A stretch of 64,000 bases of DNA from Dehalococcoidia bacterium (GCA_965197585.1 OZ240215.1:192001-256000); one strand, 5' to 3'; positions 34,224-56,080 are shown, counted from the first letter of the stretch. The notes: generated by a model not told the origin, from the letters alone. Made by a program: numbers and translations.

Positions 34224-34898
34224 TCAATCATCCAGCAGCCCGTTCTGCGCAGCCCACACCACGATCTCCTGCTTCGAGTCAACGCCCAGCTTTACCTGAA
34301 TGGTGTAGATGGCGTTTCGGATGGTGACCGCTTTGACTTCCCTCGCCGCCGCAATCGCAACGTATGACATGCCCCGGCAGAACGACACAAGTATCTCCTT
34401 CTCCCTCTGGGTCAGGTTGACCTCCTTTGATTTCGCTCCGCGCCGAATCCTGTCGAAGACCCGCCTCACCACCTCGGTAGGCAGACGCCCCTCGCCTGCA
34501 GCCGCGCTCTTCATCATGCCCAGGACCTGGTCCATTCCGGCCACCTTCTGAAGATAGCCGGCCGCACCGGCGGCCACCGCCTCTATCACGGCGTTCGCCT
34601 CCGTGGATGCGGTCAGCATGATGACCCGTGTCTTGGGCAGAGACTCCATGATCTCCCGGCACGCCTCCACGCCGTCCTTCCTGGGCATCATGACGTCCAT
34701 GACGATCAAGTCGGGCGACAGCTCGGAGGCCGCCTTCACCGCCTCCACTCCGTCCCTGGCCTGGCCCACCACCTCGAACTCCTCAGACCGCTCCAGAATC
34801 ACCTGAAGACCTTCCCGAGTGACCGCATGGTCGTCGGCGAGCAGCACCCTTATGCGACGAGACTCTGTTGACAATTTATCCCTCCTGTTGTCCGCCAC
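34224..34898 (-). CDS. NarL/LuxR-family response regulator (paralogue of 4053-4715)
   Basis: LADDH, VMDVMMP, LTQREKEIL and VTIRNAIY. Start may be TTG 34874. Confidence 0.92.
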   Translation of the reverse strand: MADNRRDKLSTESRRIRVLLADDHAVTREGLQVILERSEEFEVVGQARDGVEAVKAASELSPDLIVMDVMMPRKDGVEACREIMESLPKTRVIMLTASTEANAVIEAVAAGAAGYLQKVAGMDQVLGMMKSAAAGEGRLPTEVVRRVFDRIRRGAKSKEVNLTQREKEILVSFCRGMSYVAIAAAREVKAVTIRNAIYTIQVKLGVDSKQEIVVWAAQNGLLDD

Positions 34899-36138
34899 CG
34901 GACAATGGCATCACGCAGGTCACGCTGGCGCCCCCGGCCGGTCCCGTGGGCTCGACGATAAGGCGTCCGCTCAGACGCCCGGCGTACACCCGCATGTTTG
35001 CGAAGCCGTGGCCCCGCTCCTCGTAGTCGTCGGGAAGGCCCACCCCGTCGTCCGACACCGACAGCCTGAGCTCATCCCGTCCGAAGTCGAGATCGACCAG
35101 CACCCGGCTCGCCCCGGCATGGCGAAGGGCGTTGGCGAGGGCGTTGTGGGCTAAGGAGAACAGGAGGCTCCTGACCTCTACCGAGAGTGGCGGCTCCACA
35201 CCGTTCTGCGTCAGCTCCGCCGACACCGACGTGATGGACTTGAACGTCGCGACGTGCGAGTCCAGGGTCCAGCCCAACTCACCGCCCTCGAATATGCGGC
35301 CCATGTCAATCGGGTGTCTCAGCTGCCAGACGGCGGTCTTGGAAAGCCGTGAGGTGGCATCGAGCCGTGCGGTGAGCTCCTCGTTGGAGTCTCCGGCAAC
35401 CTGTTGGGCGGCGTCTATCCCCAGGCCGATCATGAAGGCGGTCTGGGCGGCCGTATCGTGAATGGCCTGGGAGAGCTCGATCCGCTCCCGCTGAAGCGTC
35501 CGCTCCCGCTCCACTGCGGCTCTCCACCTGCTCCGCTCGAAGTTGGAGATCAGGTTGACCGTTGCGGCCACCGCATACATGACGAAGATCCTGGCGAGCA
35601 GGGACTTCTCGTCCCTTGCCCCCATGTCGATTCCTTCCCCCACCGTGAGGCTTATCGCCAGATAGAGGACGGACACAACTGTCACACAGACCATGGTCAG
35701 CCTGAAGGAGGTGAGAACCAACGCATACCCGGCCAGCGGGGGGTAGTACAGCAGGTGCAAGAAGTAGTGGTCGAAGCCTCCCCCTATCACCGTGGCGACC
35801 GAGACCATTGTTACATCCATGGCCGCGAACGCAAGAATCCAGCGCCATGTGATGGGCCTTTTCGTCGCAAGCCGGTACTGCGTCATTCCATTGAACGCCA
35901 CTAGCAGAATGAATAGCGGCGCATACACGACGTAGCGCTCCGGCCAACCCACAGGCCGGTACGCCAGCTGCACCAAATTGAAGGCGACCACGAACCAGTG
36001 TGCCCAGACCAGTATGGTCGCTATGTATCTCAGCCCATCCGGGTCGAGCCGCATGAGCGTCGAGTTTTTAATTCGAAAGACGCCAGCGGCCTTACTGATT
36101 GGACGGAAGCCCCGGCTCTGCTGAGGTGCCTGAGACAT
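34876..36138 (-). CDS. Membrane sensor histidine kinase (paralogue of 2797-4056)
   Basis: TM helices, ERIELSQAIHD, WQLRHPIDMG, NALRHA and DDGVG. Confidence 0.9.
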   Translation of the reverse strand: MSQAPQQSRGFRPISKAAGVFRIKNSTLMRLDPDGLRYIATILVWAHWFVVAFNLVQLAYRPVGWPERYVVYAPLFILLVAFNGMTQYRLATKRPITWRWILAFAAMDVTMVSVATVIGGGFDHYFLHLLYYPPLAGYALVLTSFRLTMVCVTVVSVLYLAISLTVGEGIDMGARDEKSLLARIFVMYAVAATVNLISNFERSRWRAAVERERTLQRERIELSQAIHDTAAQTAFMIGLGIDAAQQVAGDSNEELTARLDATSRLSKTAVWQLRHPIDMGRIFEGGELGWTLDSHVATFKSITSVSAELTQNGVEPPLSVEVRSLLFSLAHNALANALRHAGASRVLVDLDFGRDELRLSVSDDGVGLPDDYEERGHGFANMRVYAGRLSGRLIVEPTGPAGGASVTCVMPLSGGGQQEG

Positions 36139-36231
36139 CTCCTCTCCTGTATGCGCGTGAAACCAAGGAATGTTTGGTGGTCACGACAGTGCGTAGGTGA
36201 CCGCTAATCTAGCCACTTTCGTTTATGTCCA

Positions 36232-36688
36232 CAAGAGTGAAATGTTGCAGAAACACACTCTCTCAGAGCCAACACTATTGCTGTCCTAAGAGTGTGATTA
36301 GGCACTTACCAAACCGACGAAGAGGCTCTATTTTCCTTGCTGGTAGAAACCGGACGATAGTTGGGGTCACAGGCCGCCACGTCAGCTGTGGAAGTCGGAG
36401 GAGGTCGTAGGTTCCGCTGGCTTCGCCTGTGCCGGGGAGGCTCTCACGTGGTGCTCGACAGGCCAGTCCATCCACCTCGGACCGCGGACGGAACTGCGGC
36501 GCCCGCAGTCGCTGCGCCGCTCGCCCCTGGGGTTCGCCGCCTACGGCGAGCTAGCACAGACGTCCTCCCCGAATTTTCGGACTCGGCTAGCCGGGGGTAA
36601 GTTATGACCACCTCCCGGCGTCTTGCGACGCTCCCACTGCTGCTCATCGGACTGGCGGTCATCGCCGCCCTGCTTCTCACTCCTGGGG
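36232..36688 (+). repeat. Copy 1 of ~455-bp direct repeat (upstream region, structured leader, RBS, signal-peptide start)
   Basis: Aligns by eye nearly end to end with 50893-51351, with scattered substitutions and small indels. Confidence 0.92.
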
Positions 36689-39600
36689 CCCAGGCCCAGA
36701 GCCGGGACTCCGGCAGCGATTTCACCCTGGACGCCGCCAACGGCTACCCGACCGGCATCTGGTCGGACGGGACCACCATGTGGGTCGCGGACTTCGAGGA
36801 TCACAAGCTGTACGCCTACCGGATGTCGGACCGGAGCCGGGACTCGGGCAAGGACTTCACTCTGGACGCCGACAACGGCTCTCCGGTGGGCATCTGGTCG
36901 GACGGGACCACCATGTGGGCGTCGGACTTCACCGACGCCAAGCTGTACGCCTACCGGATGTCGGACCGGAGCCGGGACTCGGGCAAGGACTTCAACACGC
37001 TTTCTGCAGCCGGCAACCTCTTTCCCGAGGGCATCTGGTCGGACGGGACCACGATGTGGGTGGCGGACACCGGCAACGACACGGTGTTCGCCTACGACCT
37101 GTCGACCAGGGCCTGGGACTTCGAGAAGGACATCACGCTGGGCCCCGGCCACGGCTCTCCGATGGGCGTCTGGTCGAACGGATCCACGATGTGGGTTTCG
37201 GACTGGCGGGACACCAAGCTGTACGCCTACCGGATGTCGGACCAGACGCGGGACTCCGGCAAGGACTTCGCGCTGGACGCCGACGATGAATCTTACGAGG
37301 GCATCTGGTCGGTCGGGTCCACGATGTGGGTAGCGTCCCGCGACGACGACAGGCTCTACGCATACGACTGGAACAATCCTGCGACGGGAGCGCCGACGAT
37401 AACCGGCGCGGTCCGAGTGGGCCAGACGCTGGCGGCGGGCACCCGCTCCATCGCCGACGCGGACGGGCTGGACGCCGCCATCTTCGAATATCAATGGGTT
37501 TCGAACGGCGGGAACGCCGACACGGACATCGCGGGCGCTACCGATTCGACCTACACCATCGTCCCCGGCGACCGGGGCAGGGCCGTCAAGGTCAGGGTGT
37601 CCTTCACCGACGGCGCCGGCAACAGAGAGTCGTTGACCAGCGAGCCGACGGGTCAGGTCGGGACCCCGGGCATCTGCGACCGGACGCCTGCGGTGATGGC
37701 GGCCATCGTCGCCGGGATGACCGGCGTCGGCGACTGCTCCGAGGCTTCCGAAACGAGGCTCAGGACTTGGACCGGCTCTCAGCACTTCGGCCCCGGCGTC
37801 ACGCCCGGGCTGTACCTGCAGGGGAGGGGACTGTCGGCCCTGCAGGCCGGAGACTTCCGGGACCTGTACACGCTGCGCGCCCTGGACCTGAACCGGAACT
37901 TCCTCGAGACCGTCCCGGACGGGCTCTTCGAAGACCTACGCGCCGTGGACGAGCTCTATCTGTCGGGAAACTTCATAGACGAACTGCCGGACGGGGTGTT
38001 CGACGGTCCAGGGGAAGAACTGAGCCTGCTGGACCTGTCGGCGAACGGCCTTGAGACGCTGCCGGAGGGCGTGCTGCGAAATCTGGCCGGACTCGTCTCG
38101 CTGTCGCTCTCGGGCAACGGGCTCTCGGACCTTCCGGCGGGCCTTTTCGACGGCCTGGTCGAACTCGAGGAGCTGGACCTGTCCGCCAACTCGATAGACG
38201 AGCTGCCGGACGGGGTGTTTGACCGCAATCTCGAGCTGCGCGGCCTGGACCTGTCGATCAACGAGATCTCCGAGCTGCCGGAAGGGGTCTTCGGCGGTCT
38301 CGGCGACCTGCAGAGCCTCTCCCTCGCGGGGAACGACCTGAAGAGCCTGCCGGAGGACGTGTTCGCCGACCTCGGGAGTCTCGCTGAGCTGGACCTTTCG
38401 GGAAACAAGCTCAAGGACCTGCCTACCGGCCTCTTCGAAGGTCTGTCGGGGCTGACCGACCTCGACGCGAGCGACAATCCTGGCGCACCCTTCACGTTCA
38501 CCGCAGAGCTGGAGCGACGGGGAGACGATACGGTCGTGGTCCGATTGGCCGAGGGCGCGACGCCGTTTGATCTTCAGATCGAACTGTCGGCCCGTAACGG
38601 AGACCTGTCCGCCGAGACCGTCACCATCGCATCAGGCAGTTCCTATTCGGACGTTGTCGAGGTTCGTGCGCACGGGCATCATCCCGTCACGGTGGAGATC
38701 GACTCAGTTGCTTTCCTGTTGCCTTCCGGGGGTTCAGCGTCGGGAATCCACGCCGACCGCGGCAGCGCCATGCTTATGTGGGTCGGCAGACCATTGGTCC
38801 AAAGGGAATGGATCCAGGATGGACCCTTTGCCCTGCATCCGGAGAACGCGGACCCGAAGAGCATATGGTCGGACGGCGAGACGCTTTGGGTGGGCGACGA
38901 GAGTGCCCGGAAGGTCTTCGCCTACAAGCTGTGGGACAATCCCGGCACTGCAGTCAGCGAGTACGGGACCCGAGACCCCGGCAGGGACCTTCCGAGCCTC
39001 GGCGACGAGGACTTCTACGTCACCGGCCACGGCCTCCGATTGTACGTCGCCGAAGAGTCCCTTGACGGCGCCAGCCGGGACGTCTTCGGCTACGACCTGA
39101 CGAGTTTCACGCGTGCGGAGGACCGGGACTTCGTCTACGGGGGCTTGAACGTCGCGGGGGGCGTGTTCATAGTGCGCGGCACGGCTACGGACGGCCGTCA
39201 CATGTGGATCACGAACACCACGTCGCATGCGCACGCCTTCCGTCTGTTCGACGACCCTGAGACGCCGGAGGACGAATACGGGAAGCCGGACACGTCCCGG
39301 AAACTGACGATCCCCGGCTTGGGCCAGCTGAGCGGCCTCTTCACCGACGGGCGGACGATGTGGGGCGTCAGGTTCGCCTCGAACGACGCCTCGGTGCGGA
39401 GCGTGAAACTGTCCGACGGAACCGATGCGGGGTACGACTTTCCGCTCCACGAGGACAACGACCACGCCTACGGCATCTGGTCGAACGGGGAGACCTTCTA
39501 CGTCGTTGACGCCGACGATGACATGATCTACACCTATCATGGCGTCGGCGGCGTCGTACGGCCCTCCGTCGAAGACGCGGAGACCGCCGCCCCGCTGGTC

Positions 39601-42600
39601 GGCAACACGGGGCAGCCCGGCGACGCCGGCCATGACCTGGGCTTGGCCGGCGCAAAGAGGGCCCAGGCGTTCACCACCGGGACCAGCAGAGCCGGGTATT
39701 CGCTGGCGTCCGTCGGGATCGAGTTCGGCGACGTCTCGGACACGTCGTCCGCGCCGTCCGACCTCGAGGTGACGCTCAACGCGGACGGCGGCGGCGTCCC
39801 GGGCGACGCTCTCTGCACGCTGATCGCCCCGGCGAGCCTGTTCGAGCGGAGCGTGAACACCTTCGCCGCTCCGGCCTCGGGGACGACCTGCCCGGTTCTC
39901 GAGAAAGAGACGACCTACTTCGTGGTCGTCGAAAGGGTCCGCGTCACCGGTTCCGGCGCCATCGCTGTCAGTGGAACGGTGAGCGGCTCCGAAGACACGG
40001 GAGCCGCGGAGGGGTGGTCCATCGCGGACGGAAGCGCGACATATTCTCCTCAGGCCGCCGCTCAGGGATGGGTCTACGACGCGTTTTCCTACAAGATCGA
40101 GGTGCGCGGCTCCTTCATCAACAACCCGGCTACCGGCGAGCCGACGATCGCGGGCACGCCGCAGGTTAAGCGAACCCTCGCCGTGGCGGTCTCCGACGTG
40201 TCGGATGAGGACGGGCTGTCCAACGTTTCTTACAGCTACCAGTGGATTGCCGGAGGGTTGGACATCGCCGGAGCCACCGGCTCCAGCTACACGCTCACGT
40301 CCAACGAGCAGGGCAAGCGGATCAAGGTGCAGGTGGCGTTCGTCGACGACCGTGGCAATCATGAAACGCTGACCAGCGAGGCCACGCCATCGGTCCAGGC
40401 GCCGGATCGGCCCGGAACCGTTTCGCTCTTTCCGGCGCGGCCGAGGGTCGGGATGGTGGTCAGCGCCGCGCTGAGCGATCCCGACGGCCTCCAGGGCGGC
40501 GGTTCGGGCCCTGCGGCATCTTCGGGCGCGGTTTCGTGGAGCTGGGCCAGGTCTCCTGATGGAAACGACTGGACCCGCATCGAGGCCTACGGCGAAGGAG
40601 ACAGCTACGTTCCAACCGAAGAAGACGAAGGGATGCTGCTCAAGGCCGAGGCGTCGTACACCGACGGGCACGGCTCAGGCAAGTCCGCTCAGGCCGTTTC
40701 GTCCGCTGGCGTGGGTGCCCGCGAACCGGTTCCGGAGTTGACGGTGACGGTAATCGTCACGGGCCTGTCCCACCCCTGGGGCATCGATTTCACCCCCGAC
40801 GGGACGATGCTGTTCACCCAGCGCGCCGGCGTGCTGAACGCGAGGCTGACCGACGGCACCGTCAAGCGGGTCGACGCGGATCTCGGAGATCTGCTCGTCG
40901 ACGGGTTCGCCGGCCTGCAGGCGCTGGCCGTGGACCCGGACTTTACGACCAACCGGCGGTTCTACACGCTCCAGGGGCGCGCCGGACGCGAGATGCAGGT
41001 GATCGCCTGGACGATCGATGCGGACTACGACGAGGCCACACGCGTCGTCGATCCCCTGGTAAAGGGAATACCGATCGGGCCCGGGCCCTGGCACTCGGGA
41101 GGCCGGCTGCTATTCGGTCCGGAGGGATATCTATGGATCGCGACCGGCGACGGGCGGGTGGTAACGGGCGCGCAGGACCTGACGTCCCTGGGCGGCAAGG
41201 TCCTGCGCGTAGACCCGCGGACGGGCGCTGGGGCGCCTGGCAATCCGTTCGTATCTTCCGAACTGGTGTATGCCTACGGCTTCCGCAACCCCCAGGGCCT
41301 GGCTCTGCGCCCGGGCACGGACCAGATGTGGCTGGTGGAGCACGGCCCGAAACACGACGACGAGATCAACCTGCTGAAAGCAGGCGGCAACTTCGGCTGG
41401 GATCCGGACCCGGCCGGCGGATCGTCGGGCTCCTACCACGAGGCCGGCGTCCCCATGACCGACCTGGAGAAGTACCCATCCGCCCGCCAGGCCAGATGGT
41501 CCTCGGGATTCCCCACCCTGGCAACCAGCGGGGCCGTTTTCCTGGATGGCCCCCAATGGGGGGAGTGGGAAGGGCGACTCGCGGTGGCTACGCTCAATGC
41601 GAAGTCGCTGCGGGTCTTCGAGTTCACCGAACAGGGCGATTTCGCGGGTCAGATCGTCGTTCCGGAGCTCGATGGCAGCCACGGCCAGTTGCGGACCCCG
41701 GTGCTCGGCCCCGACGGGGCGCTGTACATCGCCACCTCCAACGCACCCGGCGTCGACAGGATTCTCAGGGTGGCCGCCAACAGTGCCGCGACGGGAGCGC
41801 CCGTCATCAGCGGCACCGTTGAAGTCGGCGAATCGCTGACGGCGGTCGTGTCCGGGATCGCCGACCCCGACGGGCTCGACGATGCTGCGTTCAGTTTCCA
41901 GTGGGCCCGCAGCCACTACGGGAGCAATTTCTCCGACATCGAAGGAGCGACGGCTTCGACCTACACCCTGGTTATGGCTGACCTTGGCAAGACTATCAAC
42001 GTGCGGGTGTCGTTCTATGACGACGGAGGCAGCCTGGAGGCGCTGACCAGTCAGAGGACGGTCAAGGTATCAGTCGTGGCATGTACGGTCGGCGAGCATG
42101 CCCCTGCGGCAACGGCGGTAGAGGTAGAAGCCGTTCCCGCTATCGTCGAGTCCACCACCGAGGAATACTTCGTGCTCTACGTGCGGCCCGCCCTGAGCTC
42201 CGAACGAGAGTTCCCGATCTCGGTGACCCTGGGCGAAGACGGCACAACAACGCTGACCGAGCAGCTGTCCCCGCTCCCCAAGGAGCATTACCGGGTGGAG
42301 AAGTTCCTCATCGCCGACCCGGCCGACATCGACAACGACTGCATCGACGACATCACCGAATTGGGGGACCCGGTGGGGATGAACCCGCTGAACCCCGCGC
42401 GGGCGGTCCCTTTTCGTGATGGCGCTGTGGCCATTCCAGACCGTGAGACATTCGAGGCGCTTTCCTACAAGGGCAGAGACGTTCCCTATCACCGTCATCT
42501 CCAGGACCTGGAGTTTGTCAAGTTCTACATTATCGGCTCGTCTGCCGAGAACATGGGTGTCTATTTCATTAACACCGAGACCCACCGAATACATCCCGAT

Positions 42601-45600
42601 TTCGGGGATGCAATCGGTCTCTGGAACGATCCGCTCTGGGGACAGGGGTACATGGGCGGCGAGATCATATACCATCCCAATGTGGTTGCTCCCGATGGTT
42701 CCCTGGGCGTCTACCGCTATCAGTTCCAGCCTATGGACGTATACTCCTTCGGCGCTGTGGCCCGTTCGTATGAGGCGCTTGCTGCCAGCATGCCGCTGCT
42801 TGATAACAACTTTGCCTACTATCCGATGCCGAGGAGAGCCCTGCCGCTCTATCACAGAGAACGGGCCCTCTACGATGATTCCCGGATCAATGTGGTGTTG
42901 AGAGAGGACATCCTGCCAGATGTTCCATTTATCCCCCTCAACGTTGGGGAGGGGTACGGTTTCCTCAGGCTCATGTCGTTGGAGGAACGCCCCGACCCGC
43001 GCGACGTGGTGATCTACGAGACTATCCCCAACGAGCTTTCCCGGGTCGTCGGCCTCATCACCACCGTACCCCAGACACCGCTTTCCCACGTCAACCTGCG
43101 GGCCGTCCAGGACGGTGTCCCCAACGCCTTCATTCGCGACGCTCTCGACGAGGGCGACATCAATGATCTCATCGGCAGATATGTCCACTACAGCATCACG
43201 GCGGACGGCTACTCCATCCGCGCCGCCACTCCCGCCGAAGTCGAGGCCTACTTCGCCGCTTCGCGCCCTCTCGGAACCCAGACGCCGGAACGGGACCTCA
43301 CAGTCACCCAGATCACCGACCTGGACGACATCGGCTTCGACGACTGGAACGCTTTCGGCGTAAAGGCGGCCAACGTGGCCGTGCTGCGGACGCTGGGTTT
43401 TCCTGACGGAACCGTCCCCCACGGGTTCGCGGTGCCCTTCTACTTCTACGACGAGTTCATGAAATACAACGGGTTCTATGACGACGTGGAGGAGATGCTG
43501 GCCGACCCGGAGTTCCAGTCGGACTATGACACCCAGGAGAAAGAACTCAAGAAACTGCGCAAGAAGATCAAGAAGGGGGAAACGCCCGACTGGATCATCA
43601 CAGCACTGGAGGAGATGCACGCCACCTACGCCGAAGGGCAATCCCTGCGCTACCGGTCGAGCACAAACAACGAGGATCTGCCGGGCTTCAGTGGCGCTGG
43701 GCTGTACGACTCAAAGACCCAGGACCCGGAGGAGACGGAGGAGGACGGTATCGACAAGTCCATCAAAGGGGTGTGGGCCAGCCTGTGGAACTTCCGGGCA
43801 TTCACTGAACGCGAGTTCCACCGCATCGACCACATAGAGACGGCCATGGGGGTCCTGGTGCATCCCAACTACTCGGACGAGCTGGCCAACGGCGTGGCCG
43901 TCAGCTTCGACCCTATCTACGGAACGGAGGGGAGCTACTACGTCAACACGCAACTCGGGGAGGACCTGGTCACCAATCCCGACGCACACTCGGTGCCCGA
44001 GGAAATCCTGTTGGACCTGTCCGGTTCATACACCACCCTGGTGACCTCCAACCAGGTGGCAGGAGGACAACTCCTCATGAGCGATGCTCAAATTGGCCAG
44101 TTGAGCCGGCATCTCCAGGACATCCATGACCATTTCGAGGGTCTGTACAACCCCGGACCCGACGAACCCTTTGCAATGGAGATCGAGTTCAAGATCACCA
44201 GCGACGACGTCCTGTCCATCAAACAGGCCCGCCCCTGGGTGTTTGACGCAACTAACGCCGGACCACCGCAGGAAGAGCCGATATGGTCCGCGACCCTTAC
44301 GGTGGGGACCGCAGAGAACTTCGCCGGCTACACGACATTCGTGGCCTCGCCGGAAACCAACACCCTGGGCGCACTCTCGTCGGACACCATCACTCTGGAT
44401 GGTGTCAGCTACACCGTGAAGGCCCTGGCGGTTCGGGACGGCGAGTTGATCCTCTCCGTGACGCCAAAGCTGGCTGCAGGTTTTGTGCTGGTTGCGGGGA
44501 CATCTGAATTCGCCTCCACCGATGCATCTACCCTGGAAACGGACTCTCTCTTGCAGTTCTACTGGAATAACCCAGGACTGGACTGGTCCGAGGAGGAAGA
44601 GGTCGCTGTCAGACTAACTGAGCCGAACGATAACGACCCGGCCACGGGAGCGCCCACGATCACTGGAACTTCGCAGGTGGACCAGACGTTGACGACGGAC
44701 ACCTGGGCCATTACCGACGAAGACGGGCTGACCAACGTTTCCTACAGCTACCAGTGGATCAGGAGCGACGGCAACACCGACACCGACATAGCGGGAGAGA
44801 CGGACTCGACCTACACGCTGGTCCGCGCCGACGAGGGCAAGACCATCAAGGTGCGGGTGAGCTTCACCGACGACGCCGACAATGCCGAGACGCTGACCAG
44901 CGCGGCGACGGGGGTGGTTGAGGCCAAGCCCAACACCCTGGCCACGGGAACGCCCACGATCACTGGAACGGCCCAGGTGGGAGAGACGCTGACGGTCCTC
45001 ACCAACGGGATCGCCGACGAAGACGGGCTGACCAATGTTCTCTACAGCTACCAGTGGATCAGGAGCGACGGCAACGCCGACACCGACATAGCGGGAGAGA
45101 CGGACTCGACCTATACGCTGGTCCGCGCCGACGAGGGCAAGACCATCAAGGTGGGGGTGAACTTCACCGACGACGCCGATAACGCCGAGACGCTGACCAG
45201 CGCAGCGACGGGGGTGGTTGAGGCCAAGCCCAACACCCCGGCGACGGGAGCGCCCACGATCACTGGAACTTCGCAGGTGGACCAGACGTTGACGGCGGAC
45301 ACCTGGGCCATTGCCGACGAAGACGGGCTGACCAACGTTTCCTACAGCTACCAGTGGATCAGGAGCGACGGCAACACCGACACCGACATAGCGGGAGAGA
45401 CGGACTCGACCTACACGCTGGTCCGCGCCGACGAGGGCAAGACCATCAAGGTAGGGGTGAGCTTCACCGACGACGCCGACAATGCCGAGACGCTGACCAG
45501 CGCGGCGACGGGGGTGGTTGAGGCCAAGCCCAACACCCTGGCCACGGGAACGCCCACGATCACTGGAACGGCCCAGGTGGGAGAGACGCTGACGGTCCTC

Positions 45601-48600
45601 ACCAACGGGATCGCCGACGAAGACGGGCTGACCAATGTTCTCTACAGCTACCAGTGGATCAGGAGCGACGGCAACGCCGACACCGACATAGCGGGAGAGA
45701 CGGACTCGACCTATACGCTGGTCCGCGCCGACGAGGGCAAGACCATCAAGGTGGGGGTGAACTTCACCGACGACGCCGATAACGCCGAGACGCTGATTAG
45801 CGCGGCGACGGGGGTGGCGTCCCGCTCCGACAAGCCGGTGGCGGATGGGTCGACCCCGGTGTGGTCGGCGGACATGTCTGTGGTGGATCTCGGTAACGGC
45901 TCCATTGGCGCCGTCAGCGCCAATCTCTTTTCGAACCAAGAAGGCAGTGCGGGTCTTCAGGCAAAGTGGCTGTGGTACTACAGCCCGGGGCGTTATATAC
46001 GCCTGTCATTTACGGATGTTGTACCCAGTGGGGAGGAACTGACGCTAGAGATCGGAGATGTGGCCCTGACGTTGCAGGCGGGAGATTCGGCCTTCACCTG
46101 GGAGGAGGTCGACGTCGATTGGGAGGACGGTCAGGTCATTCCAGTGCGCATCGTCCCGACGTCGGAGACAGCGGTGTCCCAGCCCAACACCCCGGCGACA
46201 GGAGGGCCGACCATCAGTGGAACGGCCCAGGTGGACCAGACGCTGTCCGTGGACACGTCTAACATCGCCGACCAGGACGGGCTGAACAACGTTTCCTACA
46301 GCTACCAGTGGATCAGGAGCGACGGCAACACCGACACCGACATAGCGGAAGAGACGGACCCGACCTACATCCTAGTCCCCGCCGACGAGGGCAAGACCAT
46401 CAAGGTGCGGGTGAGCTTCACCGACGAAGCAGACCACGAGGAGACGCTGACCGGCAATCCGACCAGGCCAGTGACTGCGGCACCCAACCGTCACGCGACG
46501 GGCAAGCCCACCATTGGCGGGACGCCCCAGGTGGACCAGACGCTGACCGCGGACACGTCTAACATCGCCGACCATGACGGGCTGAACAACGTCTCTTACA
46601 GCTACCAGTGGATCGCCGGAGGTACGGACATTGATGGGGCCACCGGGTCCACCTACACCCTGACTGCCAGTGAGCAGGGGCAGACCATCCGGGTTCGTGT
46701 GACGTTCACCGACGACCGGGACAACGCCGAGACCCTGACCAGCGTGGCGACTGTGGCCGTTGTTGCAGCGCCCAACCGCGAGGCCACGGGCCACCCCGCC
46801 ATCGGCGGGACGCCCCAGGTGGACCAGACGCTGACCGCGGACACGTCTAACATCGCCGACCAGGACGGGCTGAACAACGTCTCTTACAGCTACCAATGGA
46901 TGGCCGGAGGTTCGGACATTGATGGGGCCACCGGGTCCACCTACACCCTGACTGCCAGCGAGCAGGGGCAGACCGTACAGGTGAAGGTGACGTTCACTGA
47001 CGACCGGAACAACGCCGAGACCCTGACCAGCGTGGCGACTGTGGCCGTTGCTGTAGCGCCCAACCGAGAGGCCACGGGCCAGCCCACCATCGACGGGACG
47101 CCCCAGGTGGGAGAGACACTAACGGCGGATACGGCAAACATCGCCGACCAGGACGGGCTGAATAACGTGTCCTACAGCTACCAGTGGATCGCTGGAGGTA
47201 CGGACATCGTCGGGGCCACCGGCTCGAGCTACGAGCTTACGTCCAGCGAGCAGGGGCAGCCCATCCAGGTCCGGGTGACTTTCACCGACGATGCCGATAA
47301 CGAGGAGACGCTTATAAGCGCTGCAACGGAGGTGGTGCAGCAGGGTGGTAACGCCTGGTCCGCCACTATCACCGTGGGGACAAGAGATGGATACACAGGG
47401 TATTCGTACTGGGGCGATCCCGGCCTGGGGTCCCTGTCGGCCACCGAGGCCGAATGGGACGGCAAGACCCACTACGTCAGGTACATCTTTCTCAAGGATG
47501 GAGAGCTCTGGCTTGGCCTGAACAACGAGATGTTCTCCACCGGCTTCGTGCTGTCGGTTGGGGACGAGGAGTTCGGTTCGGCGGACGCCTTGGTGGATAG
47601 GAGTGGCGGTGCGTCCTACAGATTCCGGTGGGATGACCGGGGATTGGGCTGGTCGGATGGGGAGGAAGTGTCGGTGAACCTCCTGCAGTCCGACCAGAAT
47701 ACCCCGGCCCTGGGCGCGCCGACCATCAGCGGAACGGCACAGGTGGACGAGACACTGACTGCGGATACCTCTGGCGTTGAGGACGCGGACGGGTTGACCA
47801 ACGTGTCGTACAGCTACCAGTGGATGGCTGACGGCGTGGACATTCAGGACGCGACCAGTTCCACCCACAAGCTCGTATTCCCCGACCGGGGCAAGAGCAT
47901 CAAGGTGAAGGTGTCCTTCACCGACGACCGGGACAACGCCGATACCCTTACCAGCGCGGCGACTGTGGTCGTTGTTGCAGCGCCCAACCGCGAGGCCATG
48001 GGATATCCCACCATCACCGGAATGCCCCAGGTGGGACAGACCCTGACGGCGGACACTTCGCCAATCGCCGACCGCGACGGGCTGAACAACGTCTCTTACA
48101 GCTACCAGTGGATCGGCGGAGGGTCGGACATCGATGAGGCCACAGGCTCTAACTACGAGCTTGCGTCCAGCGAGCAGGGACAGACCATCCAGGTTCGGGT
48201 GACTTTCACCGACGACCGGGACAACGCCGAGACCCTTACCAGCGCGGCAACTGTGGCCGTTGTTGCAGCGCCCGACCGTCAGGCCACGGGCCTGCCCACC
48301 ATCAGCGGTACGCTCCAGGTAGGAGAGACCCTAATGGCGGGCACGTCGGGTATTACCGACGCCGACGGGCTCACCAACGTTTCCTTCGAGTACCAGTGGA
48401 TCAGGGGCGACAGCGGTGCCGGAGCGGACATAGACGGAGCGACGGACGCCACCTACACTCTGACCGCCGGCGACCAGGGGAAGACCATCAAGGTGAAGGT
48501 GTCCTTCACCGACGACGCAGACCACGAGGAGAAGCTGACCAGCGCGGCGACGGGAGTGGTTGCGGCCAAGCCCAACACTCCGGCCATGGGAGCGCCCACC

Positions 48601-50724
48601 ATTGATGGAACGGCCCAGGTGGGAGAGACGCTTACGGTCCTCACCAACGGCATCACCGACGAAGACGGGCTGACCAACCCAACGTACAGCTACCAGTGGA
48701 TTCGGAACGACGGAACCAATGACGCGCACATAGGAGGTAAGACAGGTTCGACCTACACCCTGAACGATGACGACGTGGGGAAGAGCATCAAGATGCGGGT
48801 GAGCTTCACCGACGACGCCGACCACGAGGAGACCCTGACCAGCGCGGCGACGGGGGTGGTTACAGCCAAGCCCAACTCTCCAGCCACGGGAGCGCCCACC
48901 ATTGATGGCACGGCCCAGGTGGGAGAGACGTTCACTGCCCTCACCAACGGCATCACCGACGAAGACGGGCTGACCAACCCAACGTACAGCTACCAGTGGA
49001 TCAGGAGCGACAACGGCACCGACGCCGATATAGCAGGGCAGACAGACTCCACCTACACGCTAGTGGCCGCCGACCAAGGCAAGACCATCATGGTGCGGGT
49101 GACCTTCACCGACGACGCCGATAACGAGGAGACCCTGACCAGCGCGGCAACGGAGGTGGTGCAGCAGGGTAGCAACGCTTGGTCCGCCACGATGACCGTG
49201 GGGACAAGAGATGGGTTCACCGGGTATTCGTACTGGAGCAATCCACACCTGGGGTCCCTGTCGGCCACCGAGGTCGAATGGGACGGCAAGACCCACTATG
49301 TCAGGTTCCTTTTTCTCAAGGACGGCGAGCTCCGGCTCGGCCTGAACGAAGAGATGTTCTCCACCGGCTTCGTGCTGTCGGTTGGGGACGAGGAGTTCGG
49401 CTCGGCGGACGCCATGGTGGATCATGGCGGTGCGTCCTACAGATTCCGGTGGGATGACCGGGGATTGGGCTGGTCGGATGGGAACGAGGTGTCGCTAAAC
49501 CTCGTGCTGTCCGACCAGAATACCCCGGCCCTGGGCGCGCCGACCATCAGCGGTACGGACCAAGTGGATGAGACGCTGACTGCGGACATCTCCGGTGTTG
49601 AGGACGCGGACGGGCTGGACAACGTGTTGTACAGCTACCAGTGGATGGCTGACGGCGTGGATATTCAGGACGCGACCAGTTCCACCTACAAGCCAGTATT
49701 CCCCGACCAGGGCAAGACCATCAAGGTGCGGGTGACCTTCACCGACGACCGGGACAACACCGAGACCCTTGGCAGCGAGGCGACGGGTGCAGTAGCGGCG
49801 GCGCCCAACCGTGATGCCACGGGAGCTCCCACCATCACAGAAATGCCCCAAGTGGGACAGACGCTGACGGCGGACACGTCTAACATCGCCGACCAGGACG
49901 GGCTGACCAACGTCTCTTACAGCTACCAGTGGATCGCCGGAGGGTCGGACATCGATGGGGCCACCAGCTTCAGCTACGAGCTCACGTCTAGCGAACAGGG
50001 TCGGACCATCCAGGTCCGGGTGACCTTCACCGACGACCGGGACAACGCCGAGACCCTTACCAGCGAGGCGACTGTGGCCGTTGTTGCAGCGCCCAACCGC
50101 GAGGCCACCGGCCTGCCGGCCATCAGCGGCACGCCGCAGGTGGGGGAGACCCTCACCGCATCAACCTCGTCCATAGCCGACGGGGACGGGCTGAACAACG
50201 TGTCCTACCGTTACCAGTGGATCGCCGGAGGTACGGACATCGATGGGGCCACCGGCTCCAGTTACGAGCTCACGTCCAGCGAGCAGGGGCAGACCATCCA
50301 GGTCCGTGTGACTTTCACAGACGACCGCGACAATGAGGAAACTCTGACCAGCGCGGCTACTGTCGAAGTGGCGGCGGCGCCAGTTCCGCTCACCGTCCGA
50401 CTGAAGGTCGCCGCCCCGACCTCCCACGACGGCTCGTCTGAGTTTACCTTCGAAATCGAGTTCAGCGAGGAGTTCGGCCTGAGCTACGTGACCCTGAAGA
50501 ACCATGCCTTCAATGCAGCCGGCGGATCCGTGGAGAGGGCGCAGAGAACGAACAAGCCCAGCAACATCTCCTGGAGCATCATGGTAAAGCCCACCTCCAC
50601 CGGGGACGTGACGATCGAACTCCGGGCAACCACGGACTGCGGAGCTACCGGAGCCATCTGCACCGGCGACGACAGGAAACTGTCCAACTCGCTGAGCTTC
50701 ACCGTCTTTGGGCCGGGGGGCTAG
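36604..50724 (+). CDS. Giant secreted modular protein (4706 aa): NHL-like repeats, LRR, PQQ sugar dehydrogenase, dikinase module, 19 ~96-100-aa Ig/cadherin-like repeats
   Basis: Signal peptide ending AQA. GIWSDGTTMWV repeats; LPxGxFxxLxxL LRRs; GSDH motifs HPWGI, HSGGRL, GFRNPQG, DDEIN; LSHVNLRA, RSSTNNEDLPGFSGAGLYDS, EIEF and QARP; ATGxPTIxG...YQW...VSFTDD repeats. Confidence 0.92.
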   Translation: MTTSRRLATLPLLLIGLAVIAALLLTPGAQAQSRDSGSDFTLDAANGYPTGIWSDGTTMWVADFEDHKLYAYRMSDRSRDSGKDFTLDADNGSPVGIWSDGTTMWASDFTDAKLYAYRMSDRSRDSGKDFNTLSAAGNLFPEGIWSDGTTMWVADTGNDTVFAYDLSTRAWDFEKDITLGPGHGSPMGVWSNGSTMWVSDWRDTKLYAYRMSDQTRDSGKDFALDADDESYEGIWSVGSTMWVASRDDDRLYAYDWNNPATGAPTITGAVRVGQTLAAGTRSIADADGLDAAIFEYQWVSNGGNADTDIAGATDSTYTIVPGDRGRAVKVRVSFTDGAGNRESLTSEPTGQVGTPGICDRTPAVMAAIVAGMTGVGDCSEASETRLRTWTGSQHFGPGVTPGLYLQGRGLSALQAGDFRDLYTLRALDLNRNFLETVPDGLFEDLRAVDELYLSGNFIDELPDGVFDGPGEELSLLDLSANGLETLPEGVLRNLAGLVSLSLSGNGLSDLPAGLFDGLVELEELDLSANSIDELPDGVFDRNLELRGLDLSINEISELPEGVFGGLGDLQSLSLAGNDLKSLPEDVFADLGSLAELDLSGNKLKDLPTGLFEGLSGLTDLDASDNPGAPFTFTAELERRGDDTVVVRLAEGATPFDLQIELSARNGDLSAETVTIASGSSYSDVVEVRAHGHHPVTVEIDSVAFLLPSGGSASGIHADRGSAMLMWVGRPLVQREWIQDGPFALHPENADPKSIWSDGETLWVGDESARKVFAYKLWDNPGTAVSEYGTRDPGRDLPSLGDEDFYVTGHGLRLYVAEESLDGASRDVFGYDLTSFTRAEDRDFVYGGLNVAGGVFIVRGTATDGRHMWITNTTSHAHAFRLFDDPETPEDEYGKPDTSRKLTIPGLGQLSGLFTDGRTMWGVRFASNDASVRSVKLSDGTDAGYDFPLHEDNDHAYGIWSNGETFYVVDADDDMIYTYHGVGGVVRPSVEDAETAAPLVGNTGQPGDAGHDLGLAGAKRAQAFTTGTSRAGYSLASVGIEFGDVSDTSSAPSDLEVTLNADGGGVPGDALCTLIAPASLFERSVNTFAAPASGTTCPVLEKETTYFVVVERVRVTGSGAIAVSGTVSGSEDTGAAEGWSIADGSATYSPQAAAQGWVYDAFSYKIEVRGSFINNPATGEPTIAGTPQVKRTLAVAVSDVSDEDGLSNVSYSYQWIAGGLDIAGATGSSYTLTSNEQGKRIKVQVAFVDDRGNHETLTSEATPSVQAPDRPGTVSLFPARPRVGMVVSAALSDPDGLQGGGSGPAASSGAVSWSWARSPDGNDWTRIEAYGEGDSYVPTEEDEGMLLKAEASYTDGHGSGKSAQAVSSAGVGAREPVPELTVTVIVTGLSHPWGIDFTPDGTMLFTQRAGVLNARLTDGTVKRVDADLGDLLVDGFAGLQALAVDPDFTTNRRFYTLQGRAGREMQVIAWTIDADYDEATRVVDPLVKGIPIGPGPWHSGGRLLFGPEGYLWIATGDGRVVTGAQDLTSLGGKVLRVDPRTGAGAPGNPFVSSELVYAYGFRNPQGLALRPGTDQMWLVEHGPKHDDEINLLKAGGNFGWDPDPAGGSSGSYHEAGVPMTDLEKYPSARQARWSSGFPTLATSGAVFLDGPQWGEWEGRLAVATLNAKSLRVFEFTEQGDFAGQIVVPELDGSHGQLRTPVLGPDGALYIATSNAPGVDRILRVAANSAATGAPVISGTVEVGESLTAVVSGIADPDGLDDAAFSFQWARSHYGSNFSDIEGATASTYTLVMADLGKTINVRVSFYDDGGSLEALTSQRTVKVSVVACTVGEHAPAATAVEVEAVPAIVESTTEEYFVLYVRPALSSEREFPISVTLGEDGTTTLTEQLSPLPKEHYRVEKFLIADPADIDNDCIDDITELGDPVGMNPLNPARAVPFRDGAVAIPDRETFEALSYKGRDVPYHRHLQDLEFVKFYIIGSSAENMGVYFINTETHRIHPDFGDAIGLWNDPLWGQGYMGGEIIYHPNVVAPDGSLGVYRYQFQPMDVYSFGAVARSYEALAASMPLLDNNFAYYPMPRRALPLYHRERALYDDSRINVVLREDILPDVPFIPLNVGEGYGFLRLMSLEERPDPRDVVIYETIPNELSRVVGLITTVPQTPLSHVNLRAVQDGVPNAFIRDALDEGDINDLIGRYVHYSITADGYSIRAATPAEVEAYFAASRPLGTQTPERDLTVTQITDLDDIGFDDWNAFGVKAANVAVLRTLGFPDGTVPHGFAVPFYFYDEFMKYNGFYDDVEEMLADPEFQSDYDTQEKELKKLRKKIKKGETPDWIITALEEMHATYAEGQSLRYRSSTNNEDLPGFSGAGLYDSKTQDPEETEEDGIDKSIKGVWASLWNFRAFTEREFHRIDHIETAMGVLVHPNYSDELANGVAVSFDPIYGTEGSYYVNTQLGEDLVTNPDAHSVPEEILLDLSGSYTTLVTSNQVAGGQLLMSDAQIGQLSRHLQDIHDHFEGLYNPGPDEPFAMEIEFKITSDDVLSIKQARPWVFDATNAGPPQEEPIWSATLTVGTAENFAGYTTFVASPETNTLGALSSDTITLDGVSYTVKALAVRDGELILSVTPKLAAGFVLVAGTSEFASTDASTLETDSLLQFYWNNPGLDWSEEEEVAVRLTEPNDNDPATGAPTITGTSQVDQTLTTDTWAITDEDGLTNVSYSYQWIRSDGNTDTDIAGETDSTYTLVRADEGKTIKVRVSFTDDADNAETLTSAATGVVEAKPNTLATGTPTITGTAQVGETLTVLTNGIADEDGLTNVLYSYQWIRSDGNADTDIAGETDSTYTLVRADEGKTIKVGVNFTDDADNAETLTSAATGVVEAKPNTPATGAPTITGTSQVDQTLTADTWAIADEDGLTNVSYSYQWIRSDGNTDTDIAGETDSTYTLVRADEGKTIKVGVSFTDDADNAETLTSAATGVVEAKPNTLATGTPTITGTAQVGETLTVLTNGIADEDGLTNVLYSYQWIRSDGNADTDIAGETDSTYTLVRADEGKTIKVGVNFTDDADNAETLISAATGVASRSDKPVADGSTPVWSADMSVVDLGNGSIGAVSANLFSNQEGSAGLQAKWLWYYSPGRYIRLSFTDVVPSGEELTLEIGDVALTLQAGDSAFTWEEVDVDWEDGQVIPVRIVPTSETAVSQPNTPATGGPTISGTAQVDQTLSVDTSNIADQDGLNNVSYSYQWIRSDGNTDTDIAEETDPTYILVPADEGKTIKVRVSFTDEADHEETLTGNPTRPVTAAPNRHATGKPTIGGTPQVDQTLTADTSNIADHDGLNNVSYSYQWIAGGTDIDGATGSTYTLTASEQGQTIRVRVTFTDDRDNAETLTSVATVAVVAAPNREATGHPAIGGTPQVDQTLTADTSNIADQDGLNNVSYSYQWMAGGSDIDGATGSTYTLTASEQGQTVQVKVTFTDDRNNAETLTSVATVAVAVAPNREATGQPTIDGTPQVGETLTADTANIADQDGLNNVSYSYQWIAGGTDIVGATGSSYELTSSEQGQPIQVRVTFTDDADNEETLISAATEVVQQGGNAWSATITVGTRDGYTGYSYWGDPGLGSLSATEAEWDGKTHYVRYIFLKDGELWLGLNNEMFSTGFVLSVGDEEFGSADALVDRSGGASYRFRWDDRGLGWSDGEEVSVNLLQSDQNTPALGAPTISGTAQVDETLTADTSGVEDADGLTNVSYSYQWMADGVDIQDATSSTHKLVFPDRGKSIKVKVSFTDDRDNADTLTSAATVVVVAAPNREAMGYPTITGMPQVGQTLTADTSPIADRDGLNNVSYSYQWIGGGSDIDEATGSNYELASSEQGQTIQVRVTFTDDRDNAETLTSAATVAVVAAPDRQATGLPTISGTLQVGETLMAGTSGITDADGLTNVSFEYQWIRGDSGAGADIDGATDATYTLTAGDQGKTIKVKVSFTDDADHEEKLTSAATGVVAAKPNTPAMGAPTIDGTAQVGETLTVLTNGITDEDGLTNPTYSYQWIRNDGTNDAHIGGKTGSTYTLNDDDVGKSIKMRVSFTDDADHEETLTSAATGVVTAKPNSPATGAPTIDGTAQVGETFTALTNGITDEDGLTNPTYSYQWIRSDNGTDADIAGQTDSTYTLVAADQGKTIMVRVTFTDDADNEETLTSAATEVVQQGSNAWSATMTVGTRDGFTGYSYWSNPHLGSLSATEVEWDGKTHYVRFLFLKDGELRLGLNEEMFSTGFVLSVGDEEFGSADAMVDHGGASYRFRWDDRGLGWSDGNEVSLNLVLSDQNTPALGAPTISGTDQVDETLTADISGVEDADGLDNVLYSYQWMADGVDIQDATSSTYKPVFPDQGKTIKVRVTFTDDRDNTETLGSEATGAVAAAPNRDATGAPTITEMPQVGQTLTADTSNIADQDGLTNVSYSYQWIAGGSDIDGATSFSYELTSSEQGRTIQVRVTFTDDRDNAETLTSEATVAVVAAPNREATGLPAISGTPQVGETLTASTSSIADGDGLNNVSYRYQWIAGGTDIDGATGSSYELTSSEQGQTIQVRVTFTDDRDNEETLTSAATVEVAAAPVPLTVRLKVAAPTSHDGSSEFTFEIEFSEEFGLSYVTLKNHAFNAAGGSVERAQRTNKPSNISWSIMVKPTSTGDVTIELRATTDCGATGAICTGDDRKLSNSLSFTVFGPGG
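44641..45817 (+). repeat. Near-perfect 600-bp-period tandem duplication (two pairs of stalk repeats)
   Basis: 44641-45217 is almost identical to 45241-45817. Confidence 0.92.
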
Positions 50725-50729
50725 GAGCG

Positions 50730-50788
50730 GCGCTATAGAGGGTTCCGGGCCGAAAAGATAGACCGGGCAGTGCATAGCGCTTGTTTTT
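50730..50788 (+). terminator. Possible terminator after the giant gene
   Basis: GCGCTAT...ATAGCGC stem followed by TTGTTTTT. The loop is unusually large. Confidence 0.35.
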
Positions 50789-50892
50789 CCGGTCAACAAG
50801 AAAAGCCCGCGTATGCGGATGGCCGGAGGCCAGCGGCCTCTCCCGGCCCGGATGCGTACCGGTGGCGTGTGCCTGACTTTCGTCGATACTAG

Positions 50893-51351
50893 CAAGAGCA
50901 AAACGTTGCAGAAACACTCTCTCTAAAAGCTAACGACATTGCTGCCGAGAAAGTGTGATTAGGCACTTACCAAATCGACGAAGAGGCTCTATTTTCTTGC
51001 TGGTAGAAACCGGACGATAGTTGGAGTCACAGGCCACCATATCGGCTGTGGAAGTCGGAGGAGGTCGTAGGTTCCGCTGGCTTCGCCTGTGCCGGGGAGG
51101 CTCTCACATGGTGCTCGACAGGCCAGTCCATCCACCTCCGACCGCGGACGGAACTGCGGCCCCCACAGTCGCTGCACCGCTCGCCCCTGGGTTCGCCGCC
51201 TACGGCGAGCCGGCACAGACGTCCTCCCGGAATTTTCGGACTCGGCTAGCCGGAGGTAAGTCATGACCACCTCCCGGCGTCTTGCGCCGCTCCCCACTGC
51301 TGCTCATTGGGCTGGCGGCCCTCTGCGCCGCCCTGGTGCTCATCCCCTGGG
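50893..51351 (+). repeat. Copy 2 of ~455-bp direct repeat
   Basis: Matches 36232-36688 and includes ATG ACC ACC TCC CGG CGT CTT GCG at 51263. Confidence 0.92.
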
Positions 51352-51557
51352 TTGTCCAGGCCCAGAACCAGGAGGTGACCGCCACCGCGGCCGCCACCGG
51401 CGCCAACCCCCCGGCCCAGCCCACGAACCTCCAGGCCTCGGCGGTACACGATTCGGTCACCCTCACCTGGACGGCCTCGACGGACCAGACGGTCACCCAC
51501 TACGCCATCCTCCGCCGCAACCCGGACACCGACGCATCGCAGGTCTTCCACGTCATC
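51263..51557 (+). pseudogene. Truncated, frameshifted secreted Fn3 protein sharing the giant gene's leader
   Basis: Starts MTTSRRLA; an extra C (CTCCCCACT vs CTCCCACT) shifts the frame to PLLLIGLAAL...AQNQ...PAQPTNLQAS...VTLTW...THYAILRR. Fn3 similarity ends after FHVI. Confidence 0.8.
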
Positions 51558-51711
51558 CTCCGACCGTCGAAGCGGTTCGGGGAGGCGGTAGGCTTTCTCG
51601 CGGCCAGTGTTGGATCTGTCCATCGAGACAGGTTTACACAGTTCGATGAAAACGGCAGCCATGACGATGAAGTATACGGTGAAGAGAAAACTAAAGTGCT
51701 AGGAGGAGATA

Positions 51712-56021: not shown

Positions 56022-56080
56022 GTTGCACCTCCTTAGTGCCTATGCCTTGTTTCCGTCGCCTCTAGCGCCCCCTTGGGGGC

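Follow-up and report, generated by a model that had tools for sequence, protein, structure and literature searches.

We analyzed a 64,000-nt stretch of DNA from a Dehalococcoidia bacterium (GCA_965197585.1 OZ240215.1:192001-256000; hereafter, the window), in which positions are counted from the first letter. The locus is dominated by a gene for a giant modular protein. A divergent two-component system, consisting of a HisKA_3 histidine kinase and the response regulator that is its downstream partner, lies upstream. Between the kinase and the giant gene is a conserved segment, a second copy of which sits after the end of the giant gene with no kinase upstream. We divided the segment into modules A, B, and C (Table 1). 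An earlier note on this DNA had read it as an undescribed structured cis-regulatory RNA of ~370 nt, either a switch or a processive-antitermination leader for very long genes.

Table 1. Genes and segment features at the locus, in window coordinates
Feature	Position	Strand	Remarks
Response regulator (receiver + LuxR/GerE helix-turn-helix)	34224..34898	-	Pfam Response_reg (1.5e-27), GerE (4e-08)
HisKA_3 histidine kinase	34876..36138	-	Pfam HisKA_3, HATPase_c; divergent from the segment
Module A, upstream part	36215..36305	.	Conserved AT-richer DNA; boxes GTTGCAGAAACAC, CTCTCAGAGC-AAC, AGAGTGTGATTAGGCAC; inverted repeat CACACTCT/AGAGTGTG
Putative sigma70-type promoter	36306..36334	+	-35 TTACCA (36306-36311), 17-nt spacer, -10 TATTTT (36329-36334)
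Module B, 5' leader segment	36341..36432	+	Small hairpins; poorly conserved; missing or truncated in some copies
Putative uORF Shine-Dalgarno (SD), GGGGAGG	36434..36440	+	7 nt before the start codon
Putative upstream ORF (uORF; module C)	36448..36600	+	GTG start, 50 codons, TAA (36598-36600), 3 nt before the main ATG
C-rich tract CCTCCCC	36564..36570	+	Encodes the Pro run of the uORF
Main start region	36590..36619	+	SD GGGGGT (36593-36598) can pair with codons 3-4, ACCTCC (36610-36615); AUG in the loop
Giant secreted modular protein, 4706 aa	36604..50724	+	Signal-peptide-like N-terminus; Pfam GSDH, LRR_8, PPDK_N, Ig-like repeats
Copy 2 of the segment	50876..51262	+	-35 50967-50972; -10 50990-50995; uORF SD 51094-51100; uORF ATG 51108 to TGA 51264-51266

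The duplicated segment and its relatives

Aligning 36140-36760 with 50800-51420, we found approximately 91% identity between 36215-36680 and 50876-51340, with unrelated flanks. The shared block begins at ACTTTCGT (36215 / 50876), takes in the main ATG (36604 / 51263) together with the signal-peptide codons, and breaks off near 36680, inside the giant gene. The duplication of a non-coding segment ahead of the giant gene and of the ORF at 51263, as the earlier note had described it, was thus borne out. Its account of the extent, conserved into the signal-peptide codons and then lost, also held, but the onset is earlier than claimed. The second ORF had been called an Fn3 pseudogene; its frame is broken within the signal-peptide codons (frame 51263 versus 51282), but Pfam gave no Fn3 match even at E ≤ 5.

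BLAST across the genome and relatives returned matches beyond this pair, and the segment proved to belong to a mosaic family with approximately 35 members, spread over 9 of the 401 genomes sampled from the class (9 is the confident tally; 13 when weak matches are included). The genome itself (3.43 Mb) contained five full or partial copies and two to three fragments, as found by BLAST and an nhmmer profile; copies were also found in G010, G011, G037, G084, G133, G331, G349, and G374, and the eight congeners searched gave no match. After removal of overlapping loci, the working set comprised 35 pieces, of which 27 carried the 5' module and 26 the 3' module; these copies are related to each other, and counts across them are therefore not independent. 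A six-frame profile search of the 401 genomes of the class gave strong matches only in genomes already known from the DNA search; matches elsewhere at E~1e-3 looked like Ala/Pro-rich noise and were left out. When genome contigs were scanned with a degenerate module-A motif, the matches listed were only chance matches in unrelated organisms. Searches of JGI metagenome contigs gave 30 stretches with peptide patterns, none of which was confirmed, and no match with a 25-base pattern of the uORF core. In every copy with a recognizable downstream gene, the N-terminus of that ORF, judged by eye, shows a basic stretch and, after it, a hydrophobic run. Near-identical RNA contigs came from four runs labelled sponge metagenome, all of one study. 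The segment is found in a few sponge-associated Dehalococcoidia, before genes for secreted giant proteins.

The modules of the family are separable. Module A occurred alone, with short unrelated leaders, at six loci (L005, L015, L017, L020, L041, and L046), and module C, which starts ~12 nt before 36434, occurred alone behind unrelated AT-rich DNA at two positions in the same genome as the window (C1:2596835 and C1:2605221). Modules A and C were joined directly in L009, with module B absent; half of module B was missing from L013 and L016; and L011 was split by an inserted piece similar to the 3' end of a giant gene. This mosaic structure disfavors a single folded RNA, which would not tolerate such rearrangement.

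Promoter footprint, leader and RNA folding

Module A differs in composition from what follows: its GC content was 0.42-0.50, against 0.60-0.78 downstream and 0.59 for the genome. The hexamer TTACCA, which lies inside the motif GGCACTTACCAAA, was itself invariant in 27/27 copies, and at a fixed spacing of 17 nt it is followed by TAnnnT, in which the first T was conserved in 25/27 copies and the A and last T in 27/27 each, with the three middle positions variable (mean entropy 1.24). Judged by this pattern of conservation, it is the footprint of a sigma70-type promoter. A simple promoter/terminator scan reported nothing here, because the candidate promoter scores 8 of 12, below the threshold of 9. 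From the position of the promoter, transcription is predicted to start near 36341, and the first ~110 nt of the segment are probably not transcribed. Another sequence considered as a -10 element, TAGGTT (36408-36413), was rejected; it has no credible -35 element and is covered by RNA contigs.

Module A was also well retained in distant copies, with an identity of 0.78-0.79 where the third codon positions of the linked kinase showed 0.52-0.65. At least 14 other copies also have a homologous kinase, intact or remnant, immediately upstream, and we propose that module A may be the binding region for the LuxR-type response regulator. Its inverted repeat was considered as an RNA hairpin and rejected; the arms are nearly invariant, the pairing is broken in L033, L039, and L044, and the hairpin is absent from the RNAalifold prediction. 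Module B had an identity of 0.40-0.64 to distant copies, no better than kinase third codon positions.

RNA contigs from the four sponge metatranscriptome runs included the uORF region and the main gene. One contig (36417-36650, run X14) spans the uORF into the main ORF, and another (36410-36580, run X12) matches the uORF region exactly; none covered 36210-36392. The 5' ends of the contigs fell at 36393-36417, in a stretch identical between copies 1 and 2, and are therefore probably assembly branch points. Because these are assemblies of low depth with ends in copy-shared sequence, neither the gap nor the ends can be used to place the transcription start.

We then compared the stems listed in the earlier note with the family. 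All of them exist in copy 1, although the palindrome CGGCTAGCCG is at 36584-36593 and not where it had been placed. The hairpin at 36377-36391 does keep its pairing in copy 2 despite both changes (CCACG/TGTGG to CCATA/TGTGG), and 36394-401 pairs perfectly with 36475-82 in copy 2 only, both as described. Over 17 copies, however, the six helices (42 pairs) were paired in 66.0% of cells, against 65.0% in shuffled alignments (35/500 as high), and the covariation score of the same pairs was 0.111, against 0.103 (67/500 as high). Slid controls for those helices were lower (29-43%), as expected of a structure drawn from one of the sequences. The helices within module B were 52-55% paired. The hairpin at 36532-36551 alone showed several two-sided changes (4 of 8 pairs; 74.6% pairing), and that at 36377-36391 occurred as CCAC/GTGG, CCGC/GCGG, and CUGCA/UGCGG.

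Folding energies pointed the same way as the pairing tests. The minimum free energy of 36341-36612 (272 nt) was -117.9 kcal/mol (z +0.18), with 112/200 dinucleotide shuffles folding at least as well, and that of 36232-36612 (381 nt) was -145.7 kcal/mol (z -0.07), with 43/100 shuffles at least as stable. RNAalifold gave -6.74 kcal/mol with a covariation term of +0.24 for 17 copies from the predicted start to the ATG, -8.6 kcal/mol with three tiny stems for 15 copies of the 3' half, and -1.7 kcal/mol for 27 copies of the 5' half. No match to Rfam 15 was found at E ≤ 1 for window positions 35000-52500. A conserved RNA fold for the 370-base stretch is thus not supported, and the listed stems are what such GC-rich sequence yields by chance.

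These results bear directly on the idea of a ~370-nt cis-regulatory RNA that senses a signal in the manner of a riboswitch, with alternative folds or a pseudoknot. The individual stems of copy 1, the two-sided changes at 36532-36551, and the paired variants at 36377-36391 favor it, but pairing and covariation equal those of shuffles, no covariation was seen among the 17 family members, an outcome that the earlier note had itself named as refuting its idea, and there is neither a consensus fold nor an excess of stability. Moreover, the modules are separable, several copies do without the middle one in whole or in part, and the promoter footprint falls in the first ~110 nt, inside the proposed RNA. 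We regard this explanation as largely refuted and a sensing RNA as very unlikely. What survives of the earlier note's view is an undescribed cis-acting region that is conserved, specific to genes for secreted modular or giant proteins, and absent from Rfam; its action as one structured RNA does not.

Processive antitermination of the RfaH/LoaP type typically serves very long genes for surface or secreted proteins. The genes downstream of the segment are likewise very long, with surface or secreted products, and module B contains GG(C/T)CGTAGG, which we take to be loosely like the ops core. However, the module bearing this motif is missing in some copies. The whole genome has one match to PF02357, that is, a single NusG-family gene and no specialized paralog, which disfavors antitermination further. 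An antitermination leader, the second function that had been suggested for the segment, is accordingly extremely unlikely.

The putative upstream open reading frame and the main start

The 3' half of the segment, module C, has the features of a small ORF. The GGAGG core, placed 7 nt ahead of the putative start, was the most conserved block upstream of it (entropy 0.24-0.39 in 26 copies), and a start codon occurred at a fixed position in 19/26 copies (ATG in 13, GTG in 4, and TTG in 2). Seven of the 26 lacked a canonical start (ATA 5, ACG 1, ATC 1, GGG 1), and three of the copies with ATA precede intact genes, which counts against a uORF. In one subfamily, the ORF is kept by a start five codons further upstream (MKGVHLERNKP...). 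The peptide begins M-A-L-D-R-P-V-H-A-P-E-T-A-D-G, and the SD together with the first 13 codons had a mean pairwise identity of 0.78, against 0.51 for the rest.

Codon statistics were computed for those copies, 14 of 26, whose first 28 codons are free of indels. Fitch parsimony changes at codon positions 1, 2, and 3 numbered 41, 35, and 59 (Mann-Whitney p=0.032), and pN/pS was 0.65 in the uORF frame versus 1.02 and 1.20 for the two alternative frames. This codon signal is weak (p=0.03) and does not extend beyond the first ~28 codons. Third positions within this stretch are still more conserved than those of the kinase, indicating some constraint at the nucleotide level too. The uORF frame ran for 40 or more codons without a stop in 25/26 copies, as did the two alternative frames in only 6/26 and 4/26, and the 15 canonical copies had no stops in the uORF frame, against 19 and 18 in the others. 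This open-frame argument is weak for the 3' half, where just one conserved stop (TAG) is present in the alternative frames. The C-terminal halves are in fact in different frames between copies; copy 1 of the window is frame-shifted relative to the family consensus after codon ~28 by an extra G in 36529-36532.

In 13 of the 15 canonical copies, the uORF ends at the main ATG or shortly ahead of it: 7 have an ATGA overlap, 2 (copy 1 among them) stop at -6, and 4 stop at -16/-18; the other 2 read past the main start. Copy 2 of the window has the overlap (TGA 51264-51266 on ATG 51263). Stops in all three frames stand beside the main ATG (TAG 36588, TAA 36598, and TGA 36605), and the ending of the uORF there is therefore not independent evidence. 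In rearranged copies, the uORF ends 27-202 nt before the next gene.

A profile of 17 uORF peptides was searched against 1.84 billion cluster representatives from public protein predictions, so that any match is an ORF that a gene caller had also predicted; this gave 99 matches at E ≤ 0.001 (36 at ≤ 1e-10), 92 of them belonging to the family. These 92 peptide clusters, at <50% mutual identity, have a median length of 63 aa, and 71 begin at the same Met; over the latter, the N-terminal 15 residues were 71-91% conserved. A protein-database search with the copy 2 peptide gave 1 match, but this search was word-based and its sensitivity too low. From these features, we read module C as an upstream ORF that is probably translated. 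Its N-terminal conservation and pN/pS could also reflect a functional ~50-aa protein acting in trans, perhaps one that helps to export or regulate the giant proteins. However, its C-terminal half is free in frame and length and of low complexity (Ala/Pro/Gly), synonymous sites are conserved as well, and the ten peptide clusters looked up had 1-3 members each and no names. We consider a trans-acting protein highly improbable.

The C-rich tract varies among copies. An uninterrupted run of C was present in 5/15 canonical copies (7, 9, 9, 13, and 14 C), whereas the two copies of the window have 4. Pro runs of up to 10 residues occurred in the peptide clusters, and loose ends of RNA contigs carried 7-13 C.

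The start region of the main gene may itself be structured. Over 16 copies, the pairing between its SD and codons 3-4 was found in 72.2% of cells versus 68.0% in shuffles (10/500), with slid controls at 41-54%, and the covariation score was 0.244 versus 0.172 (6/500). The energy of the hairpin was not above that of shuffles (mean z -0.44). Its variants, GGTAGG/CCTACC, GGCGGT/ACCGCC, and GUGAG/CUCAU, keep the hairpin while the register shifts between copies. It is plausible from this pairing that the main start is partly occluded.

The segment might nevertheless have no dedicated leader function at all, its similarity between loci being due to recent duplication, gene conversion, and horizontal transfer, and its open frame and SD-like site being by-products of GC-rich sequence. 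In this respect, the linked kinase was 86%, 76%, 65%, and 61% identical to its top matches in G331, G349, G133, and G037, all of them from other GTDB families, where the MoxR ATPase of the same window, the one benchmark protein of this comparison, was 57%, 56%, 49%, and 57% identical; this only suggests that the locus was exchanged horizontally between families. Copies 1 and 2 differ by only ~9%, the structure is mosaic (including the interruption of L011), the conservation of module B does not exceed that of kinase third positions, and composition alone gives a probability of ~0.43 per copy for the open frame. Arguing against this are the selective conservation of the promoter footprint and of the SD and first 13 codons, the excess of module A over kinase third positions in distant pairs, and the codon periodicity. 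Module C also recurs behind unrelated promoters, and 92 peptide clusters retain the N-terminus at <50% mutual identity. On balance, we think that a segment without function is unlikely.

Proposed mechanism and related systems

We interpret the segment, with moderate confidence, as a modular 5' expression cassette, made up of regulatory DNA, a promoter, and a uORF coupled to the main gene, and not as one folded RNA. This reading builds on the duplication, the family and its modularity, the promoter footprint, the lack of a conserved fold, and the ORF features. Control at the DNA level would reside in 36215-36340, where the conserved boxes accompany an activator-type sigma70 promoter that is most likely driven by the LuxR-type regulator of the divergent HisKA_3 two-component system. 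Transcription would run from ~36341 through ~90 nt of loosely conserved leader, after which a strong ribosome-binding site would load ribosomes onto the ~50-codon uORF. These ribosomes would cross the C-rich/proline tract and terminate at the main ATG or a few bases short of it. In doing so, they may open the occluded start region and re-initiate, such that the uORF serves as a 'landing pad' for termination-reinitiation. We infer that translation of the very long secreted-protein mRNA would thus be coupled to that of the uORF, with the leader kept covered by ribosomes.

The closest parallel is ppe2 of Mycobacterium tuberculosis. Its uORF (uPPE2) is a 'landing pad' with an AUGA overlap, and expression of the main gene needs uORF translation and proceeds by termination-reinitiation, a mechanism that was demonstrated experimentally (PMC11260477). 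The ppe2 uORF sits under a B12 riboswitch and its main gene has no SD, whereas the cassette has no detectable aptamer and its main gene has an SD of its own, possibly occluded (PMC11260477). Compared with ppe2, the cassette uORF belongs to a multi-copy family and has a poly-C/Pro tract and stops in three frames, and its coupling is one that we infer. Coupled uORFs that unmask a ribosome-binding site are also described in the Sinorhizobium meliloti uRBS survey (PMC13285730) and for Salmonella mgtQ (PMC8092293). In both, as proposed here, a short uORF opens or feeds a sequestered downstream start; these are single-locus cases in Proteobacteria, whereas the cassette is transferable and precedes many paralogous secreted-protein genes.

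The same uORF could act at another level, with control moved from translation to transcription elongation. The C-rich tract would then be a Rho loading site that is masked while the uORF is translated, and an untranslated uORF would lead to early termination before the 14-kb gene. The genome has a gene for Rho, 5/15 copies contain tracts of 7-14 C, the GC skew is -0.20 around 36520-36579, and the Pro runs could slow ribosomes, with EF-P present in the genome. Rho attenuation that depends on a uORF is moreover of a known kind: as reviewed in PMC12360218, tnaC, speFL, and cruR have a leader peptide ORF over a potential C-rich Rho entry site, as would the cassette. However, the cassette uORF has no conserved C-terminal arrest motif such as these have, its conserved part being the N-terminus. 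The copies in the window also carry CCTCCCC only, and the leader is G-rich too and not G-poor overall (C 0.37, G 0.31). Rho attenuation appears improbable, and uORF-coupled translation is retained as the preferred reading.

We found no description of this element in the literature or in Rfam. The class of mechanism is known; what is new is the packaging, namely a reusable promoter-leader-uORF cassette that contains a variable poly-C tract and three-frame stops and serves giant secreted proteins. If our reading holds, a group of sponge-associated Dehalococcoidia uses a common control unit, a two-component-regulated promoter followed by a ribosome 'landing-pad' ORF, to express eukaryote-like secreted giants (with LRR, Ig-like, and beta-propeller repeats). 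One regulator, one promoter, and one uORF would then offer a handle on when symbionts display their host-interaction proteins. In addition, uORF coupling, which has been studied locus by locus in Proteobacteria and mycobacteria, would extend to a transferable multi-copy cassette in Chloroflexota. The case also calls for caution: many stems can be drawn in a 'leader' that is long, conserved, and GC-rich, and yet it can consist of a promoter and a small ORF and not of a structured RNA.

In the sap S-layer cassettes of Campylobacter fetus, paralogous surface-protein genes diverge after a conserved upstream region and N-terminal codons that they have in common. A shared conserved 5' region of this kind favors recombination between copies, and the present family resembles sap in this respect; unlike in sap, each copy here has its own promoter, and no invertible segment or single-promoter arrangement was seen. 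The contingency loci of Neisseria, Haemophilus, and Campylobacter have variable poly-C runs near the starts of genes for surface or secreted proteins. As in those loci, poly-C varies between copies of the cassette, but the tract is in the uORF and not in the main ORF or promoter spacer. One may speculate that the cassette is a horizontally exchanged 'plug-in' for giant surface proteins of sponge symbionts and that poly-C slippage in its uORF shifts termination among the TAG at -16, the TAA at -6, the TGA overlap, and a stop past the start, which would set re-initiation or Rho access stepwise and make the coupling of host-facing giant proteins phase-variable; we give this idea little credence. 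As a separate observation, the minimum-free-energy fold contained a long-range pairing between the uORF SD and the C tract, which is perfect only with CCTCC and mismatched in the poly-C copies.

Reading frame of the leader ORF and its variants

A GGGG run (window 36529-36532) shifts the proposed leader ORF of copy 1, the cassette copy ahead of the 4706-aa giant gene, off the family consensus frame. RNA contigs from three of the four sponge metatranscriptome runs (X13, X14, and X15) have one G fewer at this site; in the fourth, X12, the tract has its full length. With GGG, the stop of this ORF would become a TGA that overlaps the main ATG, matching the consensus. The difference in tract length comes either from variation between strains or from an assembly error at the homopolymer.

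Among database representatives related to the leader ORF, a sub-family (P0035, P0038, P0039, P0057, P0059, P0070, P0072, and P0080) has ...LERNKP(L/V)(Q/H)APE... in place of MALDRPVHAPE. Its members start further upstream, for example at MKGVHLERNKP, indicating that the start codon has moved and the ORF has been retained. In some copies, as at the related locus L047 (genome G349), where the C tract comprises 14 C, and in P0063, the leader ORF is continuous and in frame with the main gene, so that one long protein is predicted whose signal peptide lies approximately 60-80 residues from the N-terminus.

The copy 2 gene and the block ahead of it

The frame of the copy 2 gene is broken within the signal-peptide codons, where copy 2 has CCCC versus CCC in copy 1; the hydrophobic core is absent from the frame of ATG 51263 and carries on in that of 51282. 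Pfam identified no domain in this gene. The 275-aa database protein P0062 shares its N-terminus, and the sequence that follows in P0062 resembles Fn3, judged by eye only.

A separate conserved block, containing a GC-rich hairpin (GGCCGGAGGCC...GGCCTCTCCCGGCC), lies upstream of copy 2; in another genome the block also precedes L008 and L015. It may serve to terminate transcription of the giant gene ahead of it. No T-run follows the hairpin.

Neighboring genes and possible signs of mobility

A second histidine-kinase-like gene and a second giant ORF are also encoded in the window, and no copy of the cassette leader was detectable at this giant ORF.

Features of the window discussed in this part
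Feature	Position	Strand	Remark
Second histidine-kinase-like gene	2797-4056		HATPase_c
Second giant ORF	4842-13910		3022 aa; after the second histidine-kinase-like gene
Conserved hairpin block	50800-50875		upstream of copy 2
Copy 2 gene	51263-51776		
Primase-like ORF	54646-56028	(-)	DnaG-type CHC2 zinc-finger; 3 kb beyond copy 2

At L011 of genome G011 (1830-2150), an insert of approximately 300 nt separates the leader-ORF module from the conserved main start, and its end resembles the final ~90 nt of the giant gene in the window (~50630-50720). The insert appears to be a scar left by recombination between tandem genes belonging to this family. The CHC2 ORF, together with the patchy distribution of the cassette locus, may mark an integrated mobile region.
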